The notes under the pieces were generated by a model, which was not told the DNA's origin, did not search any database, and saw nothing but the letters and a program-made list of their open reading frames with translations. Position numbers and translations under genes: made by a program. Positions 12,600 through 21,573 of a stretch of 32,000 nucleotides of DNA are shown here, one piece after another (positions within the stretch are counted from its first letter, which is position 1; every line of letters starts with the position of its first letter). This DNA is from Candidatus Baldrarchaeota archaeon (GTDB lineage Archaea > Asgardarchaeota > Baldrarchaeia > Baldrarchaeales > DXJG01). The stretch lies in the NCBI GenBank assembly GCA_019056805.1, contig DXJG01000012.1, forward strand, positions 15,118-47,117. The letters run 5' to 3'.

Positions 12600-12998
12600 T
12601 TATAGTGGTATGAACATTGTTTTTATTTGTTGTACTCCTCTCATTCCTCTAATTCTGCTTACGAGGTCAAGTATTCTTTTGTGTTCTCCCTCAGCGATGA
12701 AAATATCAAGGCAATATTGTTTACCTATGTGTCTATGTATGTTTTCTACAACTACGTCGTCAAACTCGTGTCTTACCTCGCTTAATCTTAACTCTATGTC
12801 CCTTCTTGCATATTCACGTGTAACCATAATTACTGTGACCACATTTTCGTTTTCGATCTTAGCAATTTCTGCTTCTGCCATTAAACTTCTTAGAGCGTCT
12901 CGAAAAGCTTCAGATCTACTATAATATCCTCTTGATTTTATAAATTCATCAAATTTCTTTAGAAGTTCACTTGGTAAAGTAATACTTACAACTGGCAT
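12600..12998 (-). CDS. nikR: Nickel-responsive regulator NikR (RHH plus ACT-like metal-binding domain)
   Basis: N-terminal RHH VSITLPSELLKKFDEFIKSRGYYSRSEAFRDALR; Ni-ligand pattern H...HxH.....C retained (EVRH...IHRHIGKQYC); GGTGAG upstream. Confidence 0.9.
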   Translation of the reverse strand: MPVVSITLPSELLKKFDEFIKSRGYYSRSEAFRDALRSLMAEAEIAKIENENVVTVIMVTREYARRDIELRLSEVRHEFDDVVVENIHRHIGKQYCLDIFIAEGEHKRILDLVSRIRGMRGVQQIKTMFIPL

Positions 12999-13009
12999 AT
13001 TCTCACCAC

Positions 13010-15082: not shown

Positions 15083-15101
15083 TTATCAATGAACTCCTTT
15101 G

Positions 15102-15830
15102 CTATTTGAATAATAGTTTTTTCAGATTTTCACCAAGCACTTTTCTCTTAGTTTTTTCATTTTCACATGCTTCTTCAATTTTTGTTAATTCAACACGTAT
15201 ATTCAAGTATGGAAAATCTGAACCAAAAAGTACACGATCCTCATCGACTTCTATCGCCTTAGCTATTGTGCTTGGGAGGACAACTGCACTAGTTTCAACA
15301 TATATGTTTTCATATTTTTCCATCACGCTGATACAAGCTTCTGAAAGATGACCTAAAATTATTGTCAAATCAGGATGTCTTTCCGCGACCAAAGCTATAT
15401 ATGACGGTGAAGCAAATCCCATGCCACTGTGAAATAGTATGGGAATTCCTAAGTTTTCTGCTTCTTTAAAAAGAGGATCGAAAGCAGGGTGATCTGGTCT
15501 AAAACACTCAACTATGGGATGAAGTTTTAACCCCTTTAACTCTAAATCTTCTATTGCAGTTTTTAATTGTTTAATGGCCTCGTCTTCGATTCGTGGATCT
15601 ACACGAGCAAAACCTATCAATCTATCATTATATTTTTTTACTTCATTTGCTATTTCCCTATTTCTTTCGTCGTATTGTTGCCCAACAGATGGGTTTGCAA
15701 AAATCACAGCTTTTCTTATTCCATATTTATCCATTGCTTTAACAATTTCCTCACCGCTGACTGAAGGGTCAAATTTTGGAGTCCAAGGAGCTGATTTACC
15801 ACAATGAACATGTGCATCCCATATCTCCAT
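15102..15830 (-). CDS. Amidohydrolase family protein (Amidohydro_2-like TIM barrel)
   Basis: DAHVH, GLKLHP, ILFHSG, ILGHL, NIYVETS, LFGSDFP; GGGAGG upstream. Confidence 0.9.
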   Translation of the reverse strand: MEIWDAHVHCGKSAPWTPKFDPSVSGEEIVKAMDKYGIRKAVIFANPSVGQQYDERNREIANEVKKYNDRLIGFARVDPRIEDEAIKQLKTAIEDLELKGLKLHPIVECFRPDHPAFDPLFKEAENLGIPILFHSGMGFASPSYIALVAERHPDLTIILGHLSEACISVMEKYENIYVETSAVVLPSTIAKAIEVDEDRVLFGSDFPYLNIRVELTKIEEACENEKTKRKVLGENLKKLLFK

Positions 15831-15897
15831 TAAAATCCCTCCCTTTCAATTATAAACATAATTTTGTTTGTATTAAATATCTCTAACAGGTTTAAAG

Positions 15898-17436
15898 TTA
15901 GTAGCCATATGGTAGACCGTCGCCTCGGACATCAGAAATGCCTATTAAAGTTCCATCCTTATATTTATATACTCCTTGAGCTACACCAGTCCTTCCAGGA
16001 TACTTTAACTTTATGTACATTTTATCGTTTGAAGTTTTGTAGCCTTCTTCGACAAGTATTTTTTCTCCGTTCCATAGGAATCTAGGTGCTTCTAAGGCTT
16101 CCCAAACGGGCATTTCATAATCAACTATATTGCTTACGAATAAGGCGTGTTGTTGTGGCCTGAAGTCGCCGCCACTTGCGCCTAGAGCTGCAAAAACACC
16201 TTCATCATCCTCTAAAAGTAAGGCTGAAAGAGTATGAAGTGAGCGTTTTCTTGGTTCTAATTTGTTAGGGCCCTCAAATTTAAAGTATGATCCACGATTG
16301 TTCAATGGAATTCCCAGGTTTTTTACAACTATACGGGATCCAAATGGATGAAATAAGCTTTGAATGGCTGAAACAATATTTCCCTCTTTATCAGCAATCG
16401 CAAAATACGTTGTATCTCCACTACTCAAGTTTAAGTTTTTAGTAGATTGAGGTATTTCTTTTAAAAGTTCTCGGGCAAAGCTCTTTGAAATGAATTTAGC
16501 TAAATCGATGTTAATATATCTTGGATCGCTTAGCTGGTTATCTCGTTCTCTGTAGGCAAGTTTCGCTACTTCTGTCACTAATCTTATTCTTTTTTCAGAA
16601 AAGGGATCGATATTTTTGAGGTTTAACTCTTCTAACATGTTTAACATGAGTAGAGTTGTTGCACCCATACTATTAGGTGGTATTTCATAGACACGAATAC
16701 CGTGGTAGGTTATGGATATTGGTTTACACCATTCAGGTTTGAAGTCGCTAAAATCTGAAACTGAAAAAACTTCTTCTCCCCTATTTAGGTAGTTTACTAT
16801 CTCCTCAGCTATCCAACCCTTATAGAAGACATCTGCCCCCTCATAAGCAATAGATTTTAAAACTTCAGCTAAATTTTTCTGTTTTAATATTTGCCCAACC
16901 TTTGGAGGCCTACCATTAATAAGATAGTTTTCTCGAAACCCCTCATCAGTGAAATTCTCTGCGCCGTACTCTATTGCACGTGAGAGACTCCAATAAACTG
17001 GGAAACCATTCTCAGCAAACTGTATTGGACCCTTAAGTAGTTTATCAAACTCAAGAGAACCAAATTTACTGTGTAATTCTTTTAATCCGGCAACCAGACC
17101 TGGAACAGTTACGGAGAAAGGAGAAAAGGCTGGCATTTCCCCATAACCTAAATTCTTCAGAAATTCAATTGACAACTTTTTTGGAGCCCAACCACTTGAA
17201 TTAAGACAATAAATTTTATTTTGCTCGGCAGAATAAAATAGTGTGAAAAAGTCTCCTCCAAGCCCGCCTAAATGCGGCTGAGTTACAGCTAATGTGAAAC
17301 TAGTGGCAATGGTGGCATCAAACGCATTTCCACCATTCATTAAAACTTTAACTCCTGCCATAGAGGCAAGAGGGTGCTCAGAAGCAATAACACCGTTACA
17401 AGCTATAAAGGGAGTTTTAAAAACCATAGATATCAT
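15898..17436 (-). CDS. Gamma-glutamyltransferase-family Ntn hydrolase, no signal peptide
   Basis: GGNAFDA, VTQPHLGGLGGD, VTVPG, autoprocessing GDTTYF (Thr nucleophile), LNNRG, PRKRSLHTL, GASGG, DVRGDG. Confidence 0.92.
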   Translation of the reverse strand: MISMVFKTPFIACNGVIASEHPLASMAGVKVLMNGGNAFDATIATSFTLAVTQPHLGGLGGDFFTLFYSAEQNKIYCLNSSGWAPKKLSIEFLKNLGYGEMPAFSPFSVTVPGLVAGLKELHSKFGSLEFDKLLKGPIQFAENGFPVYWSLSRAIEYGAENFTDEGFRENYLINGRPPKVGQILKQKNLAEVLKSIAYEGADVFYKGWIAEEIVNYLNRGEEVFSVSDFSDFKPEWCKPISITYHGIRVYEIPPNSMGATTLLMLNMLEELNLKNIDPFSEKRIRLVTEVAKLAYRERDNQLSDPRYINIDLAKFISKSFARELLKEIPQSTKNLNLSSGDTTYFAIADKEGNIVSAIQSLFHPFGSRIVVKNLGIPLNNRGSYFKFEGPNKLEPRKRSLHTLSALLLEDDEGVFAALGASGGDFRPQQHALFVSNIVDYEMPVWEALEAPRFLWNGEKILVEEGYKTSNDKMYIKLKYPGRTGVAQGVYKYKDGTLIGISDVRGDGLPYGY

Positions 17437-17513
17437 TCCACCTTATAAAACAACTGTAGGAGTTTATTTTAAACAATCTATAAAATAAAAATTTTGTTTT
17501 TAAAAGTTAGTTG

Positions 17514-18251
17514 TTAGAGAATTCTTTTGCTGGGATATAAGATTTCTTCGATTGATGGACGTGACCAGGTAACATTTTTTAAGTGTTTTTTAGCTATGGT
17601 GGCAGCTTTTTTCAACTCGTCGATTGTTGGGCGTCTCCACGGGAAATTAGGAACTGGCATATATCCTATTATGTGGAAAGGTATGTTATCATCTATACTT
17701 GCTACAAACTCCGCTATTTTTTCGACTTCACCAACATCTACAAATTTGGGAACTAAAACGGTATTTGTTTTTAGTGTAATTCCCTTTTGATAACATTTCT
17801 CAAAGTTTTCGAGTACCTCTTTATTAGAGAAATTTCCTGTATATCTTCTGTGAGTATCTTCACTAATGGCTTTTATACTCACTACGGCGCTCTCTACTCC
17901 ATCGGGAGGCATTATTGATAAGTTGGTGTGACCAATGCCTACTCTTGCTCCGAGGTTCATTGCAAACTTAGCTATTGCTGGTAAATGAGGGTTGATAAGA
18001 GGTTCTCCGCCTAGAAACTTTACCTTTTCAGCTTTTTCATTCCGGTAATATTCTTCTATTAATTCTATTATCTTGTTTTCTGGTATTCTTTTGCATTCTT
18101 CTCCATTGCATGGATCTTTGATTCTATATGTGCATACAGAGCATGCCCAGTTGCAGCCGAAGTTGTAAATGAACAGGGTTTTTGTATGTTCCATGTATGT
18201 GACTTTTCTAAAGAAGGGGGTTTCGCAACGCCACCATTTCATTTTTATCAT
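17514..18251 (-). CDS. Radical SAM protein (short, PFL-activase-like fold)
   Basis: NFGCNWACSVCTY (CxxxCxxC), FLGGEP, TVLVP, IPFHIIGY; start (18251 or 18242) overlaps the ATPase 3' end. Confidence 0.92.
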   Translation of the reverse strand: MIKMKWWRCETPFFRKVTYMEHTKTLFIYNFGCNWACSVCTYRIKDPCNGEECKRIPENKIIELIEEYYRNEKAEKVKFLGGEPLINPHLPAIAKFAMNLGARVGIGHTNLSIMPPDGVESAVVSIKAISEDTHRRYTGNFSNKEVLENFEKCYQKGITLKTNTVLVPKFVDVGEVEKIAEFVASIDDNIPFHIIGYMPVPNFPWRRPTIDELKKAATIAKKHLKNVTWSRPSIEEILYPSKRIL

Positions 18252-19029
18252 CTCGTATTGTTTTTAAAGGTAAAATTCCCAGTATTTCACCATTTTCTCC
18301 CTCAACGATTCTAACATCTATCTTATAGACTTCTCCTATATTTTTGGGTGTGAGGACTTCACTGGGTGTACCAGCTGCAAAAATCCTTCCTTCTTTTAAC
18401 AAGATAATTTTGTCACAGAACCGTGCAGCTAGAGATAAATCGTGTAATGTCATAATAGTAACAAGACTATTTTCAATGGTGAATTCTTTTATTACGTCCA
18501 TTATTTGAAGCTTGTAATTTGGATCGAGATGCGAAGTTGGTTCGTCGAGCAAAAGAACTTTAGGTTGCTGAATAAGTGCTCTTGCTATATGTATTCTTCT
18601 TCTTTCTCCACCACTAACCTCATTTAATCCTCTTTCTAAAAATTCTCGGAGATCTAACTTCTCAATTACATTTTCGACAAGATTCGTTGCATTATAATCA
18701 AAAAGTTTGAACGTAGTTGTATGAGGGAAACGACCCATAAGTATAGTTTCTAAAACCGTGAATGGTGCAATTACATTTTCTTGAGTGACTACAGAAATCT
18801 TCTTTGCTAATTCTATTCTTGATACTGCTTTAATGTCTCTTCCATCGAGAAGAATCACACCTTGTTTTGGAATAAGTGCTCGGAAAATACATCTAAGTAA
18901 TGTTGTTTTTCCAGCACCATTAGGACCAAGAATTCCAAGAATTTCACCCTCTCCTGCCTCAAATGTAATATCTTCTAATACATTAACGCTATTGTAGGAG
19001 AAAGTAATGTTATGCACCTTCAATATCAT
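18208..19029 (-). CDS. ABC transporter ATP-binding subunit (FecE/BtuD-like)
   Basis: GPNGAGKTT Walker A, VSGGE signature, LLLDEPTSHLD, TLHDL. Confidence 0.95.
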   Translation of the reverse strand: MILKVHNITFSYNSVNVLEDITFEAGEGEILGILGPNGAGKTTLLRCIFRALIPKQGVILLDGRDIKAVSRIELAKKISVVTQENVIAPFTVLETILMGRFPHTTTFKLFDYNATNLVENVIEKLDLREFLERGLNEVSGGERRRIHIARALIQQPKVLLLDEPTSHLDPNYKLQIMDVIKEFTIENSLVTIMTLHDLSLAARFCDKIILLKEGRIFAAGTPSEVLTPKNIGEVYKIDVRIVEGENGEILGILPLKTIRDDKNEMVALRNPLL

Positions 19030-20053
19030 AGGTTATCACCTTTTTTCTTCTTTTTAGTAAATAAATGAAGAAGGGAACGCCAAAGAGCGATGTTATGATT
19101 CCTATTGGAATTTCAGCAGGTTGTATTACAACTCTAGAGATAAGATCGGCAAAGACAAGAAATGCTCCACCAAAGAATGCAGATGCTGGAATAAGAAATC
19201 TGTTGTCAGGTCCTATTACAAGTCTCACCATATGCGGTATAACTAGTCCAACAAAACCTATGGGACCAACATATGATACACAAACAGATACAAGTAGCGC
19301 AACTAAAATCACAATAACTTTTCTAGATTTATCAACTTCAACTCCCAAACTTTTCGCCGTATCTTCACCTAGCATCATGATATTAAGTTCTCGTCCAAAA
19401 AACAACGATATAACAATTAAGGGAACAGATCCCACAGCAACTACTTGAACTTCCTTCCATCTAATTCCTGTAAGATTTCCCATCAGCCAGAAAACTATAA
19501 CCTCGAGTTTTTCCCCTGCTACATACATCATAAACGAGGTTAACGCAGAAAATAGGGACGCTACTGCTATACCGGCAAGAAGAAGACCTGTCACTGGAAG
19601 TCGTCCATCCTCAGCTGCAACCACATAAGTTATCATAAGGGAAAACATTGCAAATATAAAAGCAAAAATAGGGATGGGGATTACGAACCATAGCTCCAAT
19701 ATAACTGCAAAAGCTGCGCCAAATGCAGCTCCCGATGAAATTCCTAAAACATAAGGGCTTGCAAGAGGGTTTCTGAAGACTCCTTGCACTAAGCAACCGG
19801 CTATTGCAAGTGAGGCCCCCACTAAACTTGCCATGAGTACACGAGGTAGTCTAACCTTCCAGATGATGATAGCATACAAATAATTTGACTCAGAAGATGA
19901 TCCTCTTAGTAAAATTTTTAATACAAGACTTGGGGGAATTTGAACTACTCCAATACTTACCCCTATAACCACGGATAGAATAAGTAATATTGCTGAGAAT
20001 ATTGTGAAAAGGATTTTCCTAGCAATCATTTGTTTGTAGATTTCAAGGACCAT
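19010..20053 (-). CDS. FecCD/BtuC-family ABC permease
   Basis: VRLPRVL, QGVFRNPLASPYVLGISSGA, LGEDTAKSLGV, GPIGFVGLVIPH, EIPIGIITS. Confidence 0.95.
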   Translation of the reverse strand: MVLEIYKQMIARKILFTIFSAILLILSVVIGVSIGVVQIPPSLVLKILLRGSSSESNYLYAIIIWKVRLPRVLMASLVGASLAIAGCLVQGVFRNPLASPYVLGISSGAAFGAAFAVILELWFVIPIPIFAFIFAMFSLMITYVVAAEDGRLPVTGLLLAGIAVASLFSALTSFMMYVAGEKLEVIVFWLMGNLTGIRWKEVQVVAVGSVPLIVISLFFGRELNIMMLGEDTAKSLGVEVDKSRKVIVILVALLVSVCVSYVGPIGFVGLVIPHMVRLVIGPDNRFLIPASAFFGGAFLVFADLISRVVIQPAEIPIGIITSLFGVPFFIYLLKRRKKVITYDIEGA

Positions 20054-20104
20054 CTACAGCACCTATATGTTGACTCTTGGAAGTATACTACTATGAGTAA
20101 AAAA

Positions 20105-20132
20105 GTGTTACTAAAAAATAAAAAAGTATTAC
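20105..20132. promoter_or_regulatory. Putative NikR-type operator upstream of the permease
   Basis: GTGTTAC-N14-GTATTAC on plus (GTAATAC-N14-GTAACAC on minus); shares the 14-mer AGTAATACTTTTTT with the upstream site. Confidence 0.6.
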
Positions 20133-20209
20133 TATATGTTTTTGATGGAAATGTGTAATGCTGTTTGTTTAGAACATAAAATGTTAGCTGCACAATTGTA
20201 TGAATTGTG

Positions 20210-21256
20210 TTAAAGTATTTCTGTGATCACCTTTTCTAACATGTCTTGCAACATGAATAGCTCGTGTAAGCATGTCATTTCTGTACTGGTCTGTACAGCA
20301 GATTTACTTGTAGCTGCTATTGTTATGTATCCTGAGGTTTCTGATACATTGACTTCAAAGAATGCCCATATCATGAACTCTAGGCCTTCAATAAATCTTG
20401 GAGATGCTGTTGCAATATGTCTATCGAGATGGTATATTTTTTCGTTCTTTACGGCGTTTATTTGATCCCAGCCAGCTCTGTTTGTGAAGTTTTCAAGGGG
20501 CAAATCGCTTTCATATAATATTACGTCTGGATTTGCTTCTATGATGTATTCATCGCTAAGTTTGGGGTAACCTGTAAGGTTTCCGGCAATGTTAATGCCG
20601 CCAGCAAGTTCTATCATTTGGTGTGTAAATGTGTTTCTTCCAACGGTCTTGTATGGTGAGTAAAGTTCTAGATACACTTTGGGTCTCGATGTAGTTTTTG
20701 TTAAGTTTTTAACAAGTGCTTCTATATATGCGACTCTAGTTTTCAAGTTGCTTACGAGGTCTTCTGCCTTTTCTTCAGCGCCCACTGCTTTTCCTAGCAG
20801 TAGAATATCGAAGTATATTCCCTCAATGGTTGTTGGATGTATATAGATCACTGGAATGCCTAATTCTTCAAGTTGTTGTAGTTTTTGTTCATAATACCAC
20901 CAAGCAATAACGAGATCTGGTTCCAGTGCTACAATACTCTCTATATCTGTGCTTCCTACAACGGTTTTGTTTTGTGCTTCTGGCGGGTCATCACTGTACT
21001 TATCAACTCCTACTACCTTATCGAAGGCTCCGAGATCGTATAGTGTTCGTGTTGCAGCTGCTGCGAGAGATACTACTCTCTCTGCTGGTTTATCTAAAGT
21101 TACTTCTCTTCCAAGGTCGTCAATCAACACTATTTCTTTTGGTACTTCCTCTACTTGTTGTCCTCTAAACATGTAGTAGCCGCCAACAAATCCGACGGCT
21201 AGCATAATTATTGCCACTATTATCACGGTGGCTATTTTTCCTGTATTTGTCGCCAT
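20210..21256 (-). CDS. ABC transporter substrate-binding protein (BtuF/FecB class III), N-terminal TM anchor
   Basis: DDLGREVTLDKPAERVVSL, IESIVALEPDLVI, IELAGGINIA, IIEANPDVI, WDQINAVKNEKIY, SPRFIEGLE; GGTGG upstream. Confidence 0.92.
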   Translation of the reverse strand: MATNTGKIATVIIVAIIMLAVGFVGGYYMFRGQQVEEVPKEIVLIDDLGREVTLDKPAERVVSLAAAATRTLYDLGAFDKVVGVDKYSDDPPEAQNKTVVGSTDIESIVALEPDLVIAWWYYEQKLQQLEELGIPVIYIHPTTIEGIYFDILLLGKAVGAEEKAEDLVSNLKTRVAYIEALVKNLTKTTSRPKVYLELYSPYKTVGRNTFTHQMIELAGGINIAGNLTGYPKLSDEYIIEANPDVILYESDLPLENFTNRAGWDQINAVKNEKIYHLDRHIATASPRFIEGLEFMIWAFFEVNVSETSGYITIAATSKSAVQTSTEMTCLHELFMLQDMLEKVITEIL

Positions 21257-21274
21257 ATACCTCGCCCACCTGAA

Positions 21275-21302
21275 GTAATACTTTTTTGTAGAGAAGTATT
21301 AC
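21275..21302. promoter_or_regulatory. Putative NikR-type operator GTAATA-N16-TATTAC
   Basis: Perfect 10-bp inverted repeat AGTAATACTT (21274-21283) / AAGTATTACT (21294-21303), between the TATA box and the RBS of the binding-protein gene. Confidence 0.75.
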
Positions 21303-21372: not shown

Positions 21373-21573
21373 TCAAATAACATTTGAAAAGAGTACAAGA
21401 AAAAATACAATCCGTTTAAAACCTTTATAGGTAAATGTAAGCTTTGATTCATCAATAATCCTCTCAGTGTTCATTAAAACTTTAACTCCTGTCATTGAAG
21501 CCAAAGGATACTTTGACCTAACAAAAATATTACTAACTGTAATTAGGCTTTTAACAGTATAGTGCCCCAACAA
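21373..21573 (-). pseudogene. Truncated remnant of a GGT-family N-terminus
   Basis: PLASMTGVKVLMN matches PLASMAGVKVLMN of the GGT gene; 22 identical nt (21470-21491 vs 17336-17357), then homology stops abruptly. Confidence 0.7.

Follow-up and report, generated by a model that had tools for sequence, protein, structure and literature searches.

Six adjacent genes in an Asgard archaeal contig raise the question of whether an importer and the enzymes encoded behind it form a single pathway. The genes lie at positions 15102-21256 of the stretch of DNA that we analyzed (the window), 32,000 nt of contig DXJG01000012.1 from a Candidatus Baldrarchaeota archaeon. They encode a substrate-binding protein (SBP), a FecCD/BtuC-type permease and an ATPase of an ATP-binding cassette (ABC) importer, a radical S-adenosylmethionine enzyme (rSAM), a GGT-family hydrolase, and an Amidohydro_2 protein (Table 1). 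A preliminary description of the window had proposed that all six act together, importing a metal-ligand complex and then dismantling or remodeling its ligand in the cytoplasm. We found that the interval probably consists of two unrelated units, a four-gene importer-rSAM module (unit 1, 17514-21302) and the GGT/amidohydrolase pair (unit 2, 15102-17436). On balance, we favor the reading that unit 1 is an importer of a chelated metal that is induced by nickel limitation and whose cargo is processed by the rSAM enzyme, with the two hydrolases as unrelated neighbors.

All six open reading frames lie on the minus strand at the positions given in the preliminary description, and their coordinates also bear out its overlaps and gaps. 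The permease and ATPase genes overlap by 20 nt, and the ATPase and rSAM genes by 44 nt (35 nt if counted from the MKWW start of the 242-aa database versions). The rSAM-GGT gap is 77 nt long with a GC content of 0.21, and the GGT-amidohydrolase gap (15831-15897) is 67 nt long with a GC content of 0.24. A further gap of 156 nt (20054-20209), which separates the genes for the binding protein and the permease, was absent from that description. The six-gene pattern is not due to chance: the domain matches are far above curated cutoffs, and many genomes have the first four genes side by side. No NCBIfam equivalog model reached its cutoff for any of the six proteins.

The importer and radical SAM genes form a conserved module

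We followed the rSAM protein as the most specific marker of the module. It had only 18 relatives in a search of 5.8 billion proteins, and among 1.84 billion cluster representatives, a profile search detected 103 clusters at E < 1e-30. About 50 loci with rSAM relatives were inspected. All homologues of at least 40% identity that had enough flanking sequence adjoin genes for an SBP, a FecCD permease, and an ATPase. The hosts of the module include other Asgard lineages (Njord- and Odinarchaeia) and two metagenome-assembled genomes (MAGs), one of Methanobacteriota and one of Methanomassiliicoccales. At least two further contigs with the module are probably bacterial, and one of these has a TonB-dependent receptor. 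The genes occur in two orders, SBP-permease-ATPase-rSAM or SBP-rSAM-permease-ATPase. At three loci (L007, L011, and L014), the ATPase and rSAM genes overlap by 4 nt.

In a maximum-likelihood tree, the window rSAM falls into a clade of seven entries, all of them transporter-linked, with support of 100/98. Clades from ANME-1, Methanocaldococcus, Archaeoglobi, and Dehalococcoides hold rSAM relatives in other gene contexts. In the phylum sample, the enzyme occurs in 2/41 genomes. The sole same-order genome with a match (L006:1507-1836, L005, G004:C82) has a contig-end fragment and a copy that is broken by three stop codons (two TGA and one TAG), and these copies are probably a decaying module.

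The more distant relatives have neighbors of several kinds. Dehalococcoides mccartyi CBDB1 (L055:7258-10257) has a 29%-identical rSAM relative in an rdhA-rdhB cluster, where it is flanked by the genes for an ATP-binding protein (Diphthami_syn_2) and for a radical SAM protein that binds B12, with CbiZ nearby. The relatives in ANME-1/Methanophagales occur as tandem pairs (L028, L030, L033, L035, and L029). One of them carries a C-terminal ThiS-like fusion and has a rhodanese gene beside it (L029:5691-6950), which hints at sulfur chemistry.

Literature searches on radical SAM enzymes with FecCD, NikR, or BtuFCD found no account of such a module. What appears to be undescribed is that FecCD importers are consistently paired with members of this rSAM clade and are placed in a predicted NikR regulon; the component parts are of known kinds. 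The same appears to be true of a second, differently built rSAM-FecCD module that is described below. As for the earlier proposal of metal-ligand import followed by cytoplasmic processing, it is a reasonable reading of these four genes, which form a conserved, translationally coupled unit, but its inclusion of the two hydrolases did not hold up.

NikR-type operators precede the module and recur in the genome

Operator 1 lies 8 nt 3' of a TATA-like element (AAAGTTATAAA) and 19 nt 5' of the ATG of the binding-protein gene, and it overlaps the expected transcription start. A weaker operator 2 lies in the gap 5' of the permease gene, and the vent contig L010, which is 95% identical, retains it. 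Published NikR boxes are 27- to 28-bp inverted repeats with 7-nt half-sites, GTGTTAC-N13/14-GTAACAC and the reversed form, found 5' of nickel importers (PMC545781). The geometry and half-sites of the operator agree with these boxes.

An extended operator motif, TAATACTTTTTT-N2-AAAAAAGTATTA, has four sites in the genome within 2/24 mismatches and 0 for each of 40 composition-matched palindromes with shuffled arms, in a test that is partly circular because the motif was refined on the very sites counted. The other three sites lie directly 5' of a cbiM/nikM-cbiQ-cbiO operon (site at G000:C4:16200-16227), a second rSAM-SBP-FecCD-ATPase operon (C9:430343-430370), and an operon of an FmdE gene and an ABC-2 exporter (C9:442368-442395). 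By its promoter sequence, the module thus qualifies as a predicted NikR regulon member, as it shares with a nickel importer gene an inverted repeat of 27-28 bp with NikR-type half-sites.

The cbiM/nikM-cbiQ-cbiO operon (L067:4201-7004; G000:C4:16200-19003) has the best operator match, which is perfect and lies 15 nt 5' of a TTG start codon, from which the protein begins with MHIPDG. Presumably, this N terminus tells NikM (MHIPDG) from CbiM, and the operon probably encodes a nickel importer of the energy-coupling factor type. The genome has three [NiFe]-hydrogenase loci (large subunits) and acetyl-CoA synthase (ACS; CdhC), and CbiC and CobS were not found in it at 91% completeness. Therefore, the cbiM-type importer is more likely to be used for nickel than for cobalt.

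The second rSAM importer of the same genome (L066:3810-7827; G000:C9:430309-434326) begins with a BioB/HmdB-like radical SAM gene (353 aa), followed by Peripla_BP_2, FecCD, and ATPase genes, and it sits behind two tandem operator copies, one of them weaker. The same gene arrangement is found in Archaeoglobus and in a contig of Desulfobacula that has TonB-dependent receptors. Behind another operator copy lies a gene for an FmdE-domain protein (153 aa) followed by an ABC-2 exporter of an ATPase and two membrane genes (L066:12145-15895, G000:C9). This operon could provide a metallochaperone and an exporter of the nickel regulon.

The operator is found beyond this genome. In four other lineages (L007, L011, L017, and L057), the 110 nt 5' of the SBP gene show an enrichment of about 37-fold in NikR-type heptamers; counted without the window, 6 of 20 heptamers fall within 440 of 52,805 nt (p ~1e-8). 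Paired NikR-type sites with N13-15 spacing are present in the promoter regions of the same four loci. In a module-carrying Njordarchaeota genome, nikM (start MHIPDG) has the site GTATTAC-N14-GTATTAC 10 nt before its ATG, and in its inner bases this site agrees with the module's own. At L017, nikR-hypA-hypD is divergent from the module, with hypE and hypF nearby and a cation-efflux gene following.

NikR itself is the predicted operator-binding protein. About 4.5 kb separate the nikR gene of the window from the rSAM gene, and the nikR product retains the four nickel ligands (H, HxH, C) in alignment to 2BJ1 and 1Q5V. No other NikR_C gene was found in the assembly, and the Njordarchaeota genome, too, has a single one. 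At 12979-13006, where nikR and a P-type ATPase gene diverge, there is one good half-site of the NikR type (GTAATACTT) overlapping the start codon of nikR; its partner arm is poor, with 3 mismatches.

The importer and its likely cargo

The binding protein, permease, and ATPase are encoded together, and their Peripla_BP_2, FecCD, and ABC_tran domains are those of a type II ABC importer (FecCD/BtuCD-F type). The ATPase has Walker A (GPNGAGKT) and signature (SGGE) motifs. The best named relatives of the binding protein are BtuF (90.5 bits against a cutoff of 234) and heme binders (IsdE, 75 bits), and IsdE-, ShuT-, and HmuT-type binders are among its matches. The permease has BtuC as its best NCBIfam match, at 310 bits against a cutoff of 461, and the ATPase scores 233 bits with the corrinoid ATPase model, whose cutoff is 537. 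With all three models under their cutoffs, we rejected an equivalog-level assignment as a BtuFCD cobalamin importer.

Besides the circularity noted above, several observations weigh against a NikR-controlled nickel importer that is separate from the hydrolases. The 14 outer bases of the operator alone are not enriched, with 21 genome sites at no more than 2 mismatches against 19 for the control, and only the extended 24-base motif gives a signal. No NikR box was found in the probably bacterial module contigs. The Protein Data Bank (PDB) matches of the binding protein reach 1e-19 to 1e-23 for BtuF and heme binders, against 1e-6 for the solved Ni-(His)2 binder. The organism should need imported corrinoid, because corrin synthesis is apparently lacking yet ACS is present, and only two FecCD importers were found. 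A distant rSAM homologue (29% identity, Dehalococcoides) is part of a corrinoid-rich rdh cluster. Finally, transcription may run from the rSAM gene on into the GGT gene.

The need for corrinoid, the similarity to BtuF and BtuC, and the neighbors of the Dehalococcoides homologue (rdhAB, the B12-binding radical SAM gene, and CbiZ) favor the strongest rival explanation, as does the same operator in front of cbiM. This rival holds that the importer takes up a corrinoid as BtuFCD does, that the rSAM enzyme remodels or repairs the salvaged corrinoid, and that the operator marks a cobalt or corrinoid regulon. We consider it unlikely, since the BtuF (90 versus 234) and BtuC (310 versus 461) equivalog cutoffs were missed, the operator fits the published NikR boxes in both geometry and half-site, and nikR-hypA-hypD adjoins the module at L017. 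Moreover, free cobalt taken up through CbiM would be of little use without corrin synthesis, which favors nickel for the regulon. Rfam searches found no riboswitch in L007, L010, L011, L014, L018, L021, L046, L058, or L078, and the lack of a cobalamin riboswitch at the probably bacterial loci L014, L018, and L078 also argues against a corrinoid cargo.

Importers of the FecCD family mostly carry iron chelates or heme. The module might therefore import heme or a ferric siderophore that the rSAM enzyme degrades or reduces without oxygen, functionally like ChuW/HutW, and the IsdE-, ShuT-, and HmuT-type matches would fit such a role, as would the TonB-dependent receptors encoded at L014, a locus of this module, and at L078, a locus of the second, BioB-like one. 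However, the operator is of the NikR type and not of the Fur or DtxR type, and L078 has no convincing Fur box, the best matches having 3 to 5 mismatches and none being in the promoter region. The rSAM enzyme also differs from ChuW in that it has 245 aa, no HemN-like architecture, and no HemN_C match. An iron cargo is thus improbable.

The radical SAM enzyme

The enzyme is a member of the radical SAM superfamily, with a CX3CX2C cluster motif, a GGEP motif, and a PflA-like partial barrel. C33, C37, and C40 are invariant in 45 rSAM relatives, and GGEP is conserved. An AlphaFold2 model has a predicted local distance difference test (pLDDT) score of 93, and its top fold matches are all radical SAM enzymes. 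In this model, the best fold match is pyruvate formate-lyase activase, with a template modeling (TM) score of 0.69-0.71, an E value of about 1e-12, and 14% identity. Among the Pfam and NCBIfam matches, there was no auxiliary-cluster domain and no fitting family model. A feature search of the ESM Atlas yielded only radical SAM clusters without a name.

Several assignments were rejected. The protein is not a glycyl-radical enzyme activase of the PflA or NrdG type, because TIGR02494 gave 24 bits against a cutoff of 174 and NrdG2 gave 48 against 131. A partner gene for a glycyl-radical enzyme was absent from every module locus, although no genome-wide search for such enzymes was made. Nor does it belong to the ChuW/HutW class: Pfam gave only Radical_SAM/Fer4_12, and no HemN-type model was among the best 25 of 39 NCBIfam matches. 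Assignments of the rSAM genes as TatD-linked rSAM or LipS2 were dropped, as the scores were far under the cutoffs.

Because the rSAM gene stays coupled to the importer across distant hosts, the importer cargo would be the most economical candidate for its substrate. A predicted complex of the ATPase and the rSAM protein scored 0.00, and this value, obtained without controls, speaks neither for nor against binding. Alternatively, the enzyme could be merely coregulated with the importer, and could activate or modify a protein as PflA does, or make a cofactor or metallophore. The fold match to pyruvate formate-lyase activase points this way, as do the unrelated contexts of the distant clades (the ThiS fusion by rhodanese in ANME-1, and ferredoxin in Methanocaldococcus), and the exporter operon with the same operator would suit a secreted chelator. 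Against this, distant hosts preserve either the tight translational coupling to the ATPase gene or a position of the rSAM gene between those for the SBP and the permease, and no gene for a glycyl-radical enzyme or a peptide precursor is conserved beside the module. We therefore hold it to be quite unlikely that the enzyme does not act on the cargo.

The GGT and amidohydrolase genes are lineage-specific neighbors

The GGT-like protein matches G_glu_transpept over its full length, and the Thr of its GDTTYF motif aligns with the GGTVY site of 2NLZ, as expected of the GGT family (Ntn hydrolase T03). It scores 338 bits with TIGR00066, just short of the cutoff of 357.85, so the hydrolase belongs to the GGT family but is not necessarily a true GGT. 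It retains the nucleophile Thr and has no signal peptide, and among solved structures it is closest to 2NLZ and 2I3O. The second protein is an Amidohydro_2 (PF04909) member, with 116 bits against a cutoff of 26.4 and an HxH metal motif (AHVH, residues 6-9). It has no NCBIfam match, and its nearest solved relative, 3CJP, is itself of no known function.

The two genes follow the module only in L010. They are missing 3' of the rSAM gene in L015 (80% rSAM identity), L011/L016 (69%), L007 (51%), L014 (51%), L057 (44%), and L017/L018 (43/40%); in L015, the gene after rSAM is an unrelated convergent open reading frame. The gene-neighborhood survey that the preliminary description had proposed thus gave, in its synteny part, the very outcome that the description had named as telling against the pathway. 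The phyletic patterns differ as well: in the phylum sample, GGT occurs in 75/151 genomes and the amidohydrolase in 16/151, against 2/41 for rSAM. Within about 10 kb of the closest orthologues of GGT (47-55%) and of the amidohydrolase (55-57%), we found no transporter, no rSAM gene, and neither hydrolase next to the other.

A same-genus genome has the GGT, amidohydrolase, P-type ATPase, and nikR genes in this order at a contig edge, so the order is a genus feature. In L010, a HAD-family hydrolase gene (L010:6194-6898) lies between the amidohydrolase and P-type ATPase genes. In the window, only 19 nt (15083-15101) separate these two genes, and in contig L071, from the same genus, they are 1.8 kb apart. 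The neighborhood is in flux in its gene content.

The rSAM-GGT gap contains a T-run (TTTTTATTTT) about 20 nt past the rSAM stop, then a TATA-like element (TTTAAAATAAA), and then an AAGGTGG ribosome site. There is no NikR half-site in this gap or in the GGT-amidohydrolase gap. The former is a probable boundary between the two units, and GGT and amidohydrolase are probably transcribed from their own AT-rich promoters.

The four-gene cassette is bracketed by a repeat of the GGT gene. An 85-nt stretch of the GGT 5' end (17336-17420) recurs 5' of the binding-protein gene as a gap-free copy that is 71% identical, with a start-to-start distance of 4134 nt. The two copies agree at each of the first 22 nt and remain more weakly similar over about 150 nt, as far as the ribosome-site region of GGT. 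Many stop codons interrupt the upstream copy. This arrangement suggests that the four-gene block was inserted beside GGT with target duplication in this genus-level lineage. A second copy of GGT that was later lost would also explain it.

A six-gene pathway, in which the ligand would be opened by the rSAM enzyme and then hydrolyzed by the GGT-like enzyme and the amidohydrolase, has in its favor the common orientation and short gaps of the genes, the arrangement kept in L010 and the hydrolase pair kept in the same-genus genome, and the intact catalytic residues of two predicted cytoplasmic enzymes, but it is very doubtful and survives only as a recent lineage-specific co-option, since synteny is gone by 80% rSAM identity and in every more distant module carrier, the phyletic patterns of the three enzymes differ, the hydrolase orthologues have no transporter or rSAM gene nearby, the relic GGT repeat brackets the cassette, and a T-run and a TATA-like element, with no NikR half-site, lie between the rSAM and GGT genes. 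The GGT and amidohydrolase genes are lineage-specific neighbors outside the conserved module, and they should not be annotated as members of the importer system.

Table 1. Features of the locus (positions in the window)
Feature	Position	Strand	Match or description
Substrate-binding protein	20210-21256	-	Peripla_BP_2, 7e-36; class III, BtuF/heme-binder-like; N-terminal membrane anchor
FecCD/BtuC-type permease	19010-20053	-	FecCD, 9e-102
ABC ATPase	18208-19029	-	ABC_tran, 1.5e-35
Radical SAM enzyme, 245 aa	17514-18251	-	Radical_SAM, 8e-15; CNWACSVC motif
GGT-family Ntn hydrolase, cytoplasmic (predicted)	15898-17436	-	G_glu_transpept, 3e-118
Amidohydro_2 protein	15102-15830	-	Amidohydro_2, 3e-33
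Operator 1	21275-21302		Perfect 28-bp palindrome GTAATAC-N14-GTATTAC, NikR-box geometry
Operator 2, weaker	20105-20132		GTAATAC-N14-GTAACAC, in 156-nt gap 5' of permease gene
rSAM-GGT gap, probable boundary of two units	17437-17513	-	
Decayed noncoding copy of GGT 5' end	21470-21554	-	
nikR	12600-12998	-	NikR_C domain; proposed regulator of operators

Proposed mechanism and significance

We propose the following for unit 1. When nickel is plentiful, Ni-NikR would occupy the operator and block transcription. When nickel is scarce, the importer would be produced and would bring in metal in chelated form, most likely as a nickel complex. The rSAM enzyme would then act on this cargo in the cytoplasm without oxygen, releasing or converting it. 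What we observed is the gene content, the conservation of the four genes as a unit, and the operator sequence with its recurrence; NikR as the protein that binds the operator, a nickel complex as cargo, and this cargo as the rSAM substrate are inferred.

A bolder possibility, which we raise tentatively and do not expect to be the likelier outcome, is that rSAM-coupled, NikR-controlled FecCD importers are an undescribed form of anaerobic nickel acquisition. A tight chelate, perhaps a nickelophore or a tetrapyrrole of nickel (coenzyme F430, for example), would be imported, and its ligand would be broken without oxygen to free the nickel. This would be the nickel counterpart of ChuW-type heme degradation, and the present genome would have two such systems with different rSAM enzymes. 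F430 is expected to be plentiful in methane-rich vent sediments such as the source of these contigs.

Strict anaerobes need nickel for hydrogenases and CO dehydrogenase/acetyl-CoA synthase, and its acquisition in sulfidic settings is poorly understood. If our reading is correct, the FecCD-importer and rSAM module is a new component of archaeal nickel homeostasis, an uncharacterized radical SAM clade gains a testable role, and the predicted Asgard NikR regulon grows.

Comparison with known systems

The FecDE-CeuE system of Helicobacter is a FecCD-type ABC importer of Ni-(L-His)2 that responds to NikR. Its solved binding proteins (4LS3, 4INO, and 4INP) are among the PDB matches of our binding protein. 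The module resembles FecDE-CeuE in its FecCD-family importer and class III binding protein and, as predicted here, in its chelated nickel cargo and NikR control. It differs in that its binding protein is distant (E ~1e-6) and closer to BtuF and the heme binders, and in its archaeal host. We know of no radical SAM partner of Helicobacter FecDE-CeuE.

As in the NikR regulon with NikMNQO (PMC545781), an inverted repeat lies 5' of a nickel importer, and here the GTAATAC-N14-GTATTAC type precedes nikM/cbiM in two genomes. Unlike that regulon, the one predicted here adds two FecCD importers, each with an rSAM gene, and an FmdE-exporter operon; our literature searches did not find such members described. 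The module has the same transporter architecture as BtuFCD, and BtuF and BtuC are the best-scoring named models for its binding protein and permease. However, the scores are under all equivalog cutoffs, the control element is of the NikR type, and the operon includes an rSAM gene.

The rSAM enzyme is closest in fold to PflA (PDB 3C8F, 3CB8, and 8FO0) and has the same size. Unlike PflA, to which it is 14% identical, it scores far under the cutoffs of the activase models (24 versus 174 bits), and its module has no gene for a glycyl-radical enzyme. ChuW/HutW, a radical SAM enzyme of heme-uptake operons that opens heme without oxygen, is a HemN-like methyltransferase of about 450 aa. Our enzyme is not a member of the ChuW family, being a minimal PflA-like barrel of 245 aa without HemN_C. 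Nevertheless, it resembles ChuW/HutW in that an rSAM enzyme is encoded with a metal-chelate importer in anaerobes and is proposed to free the metal.

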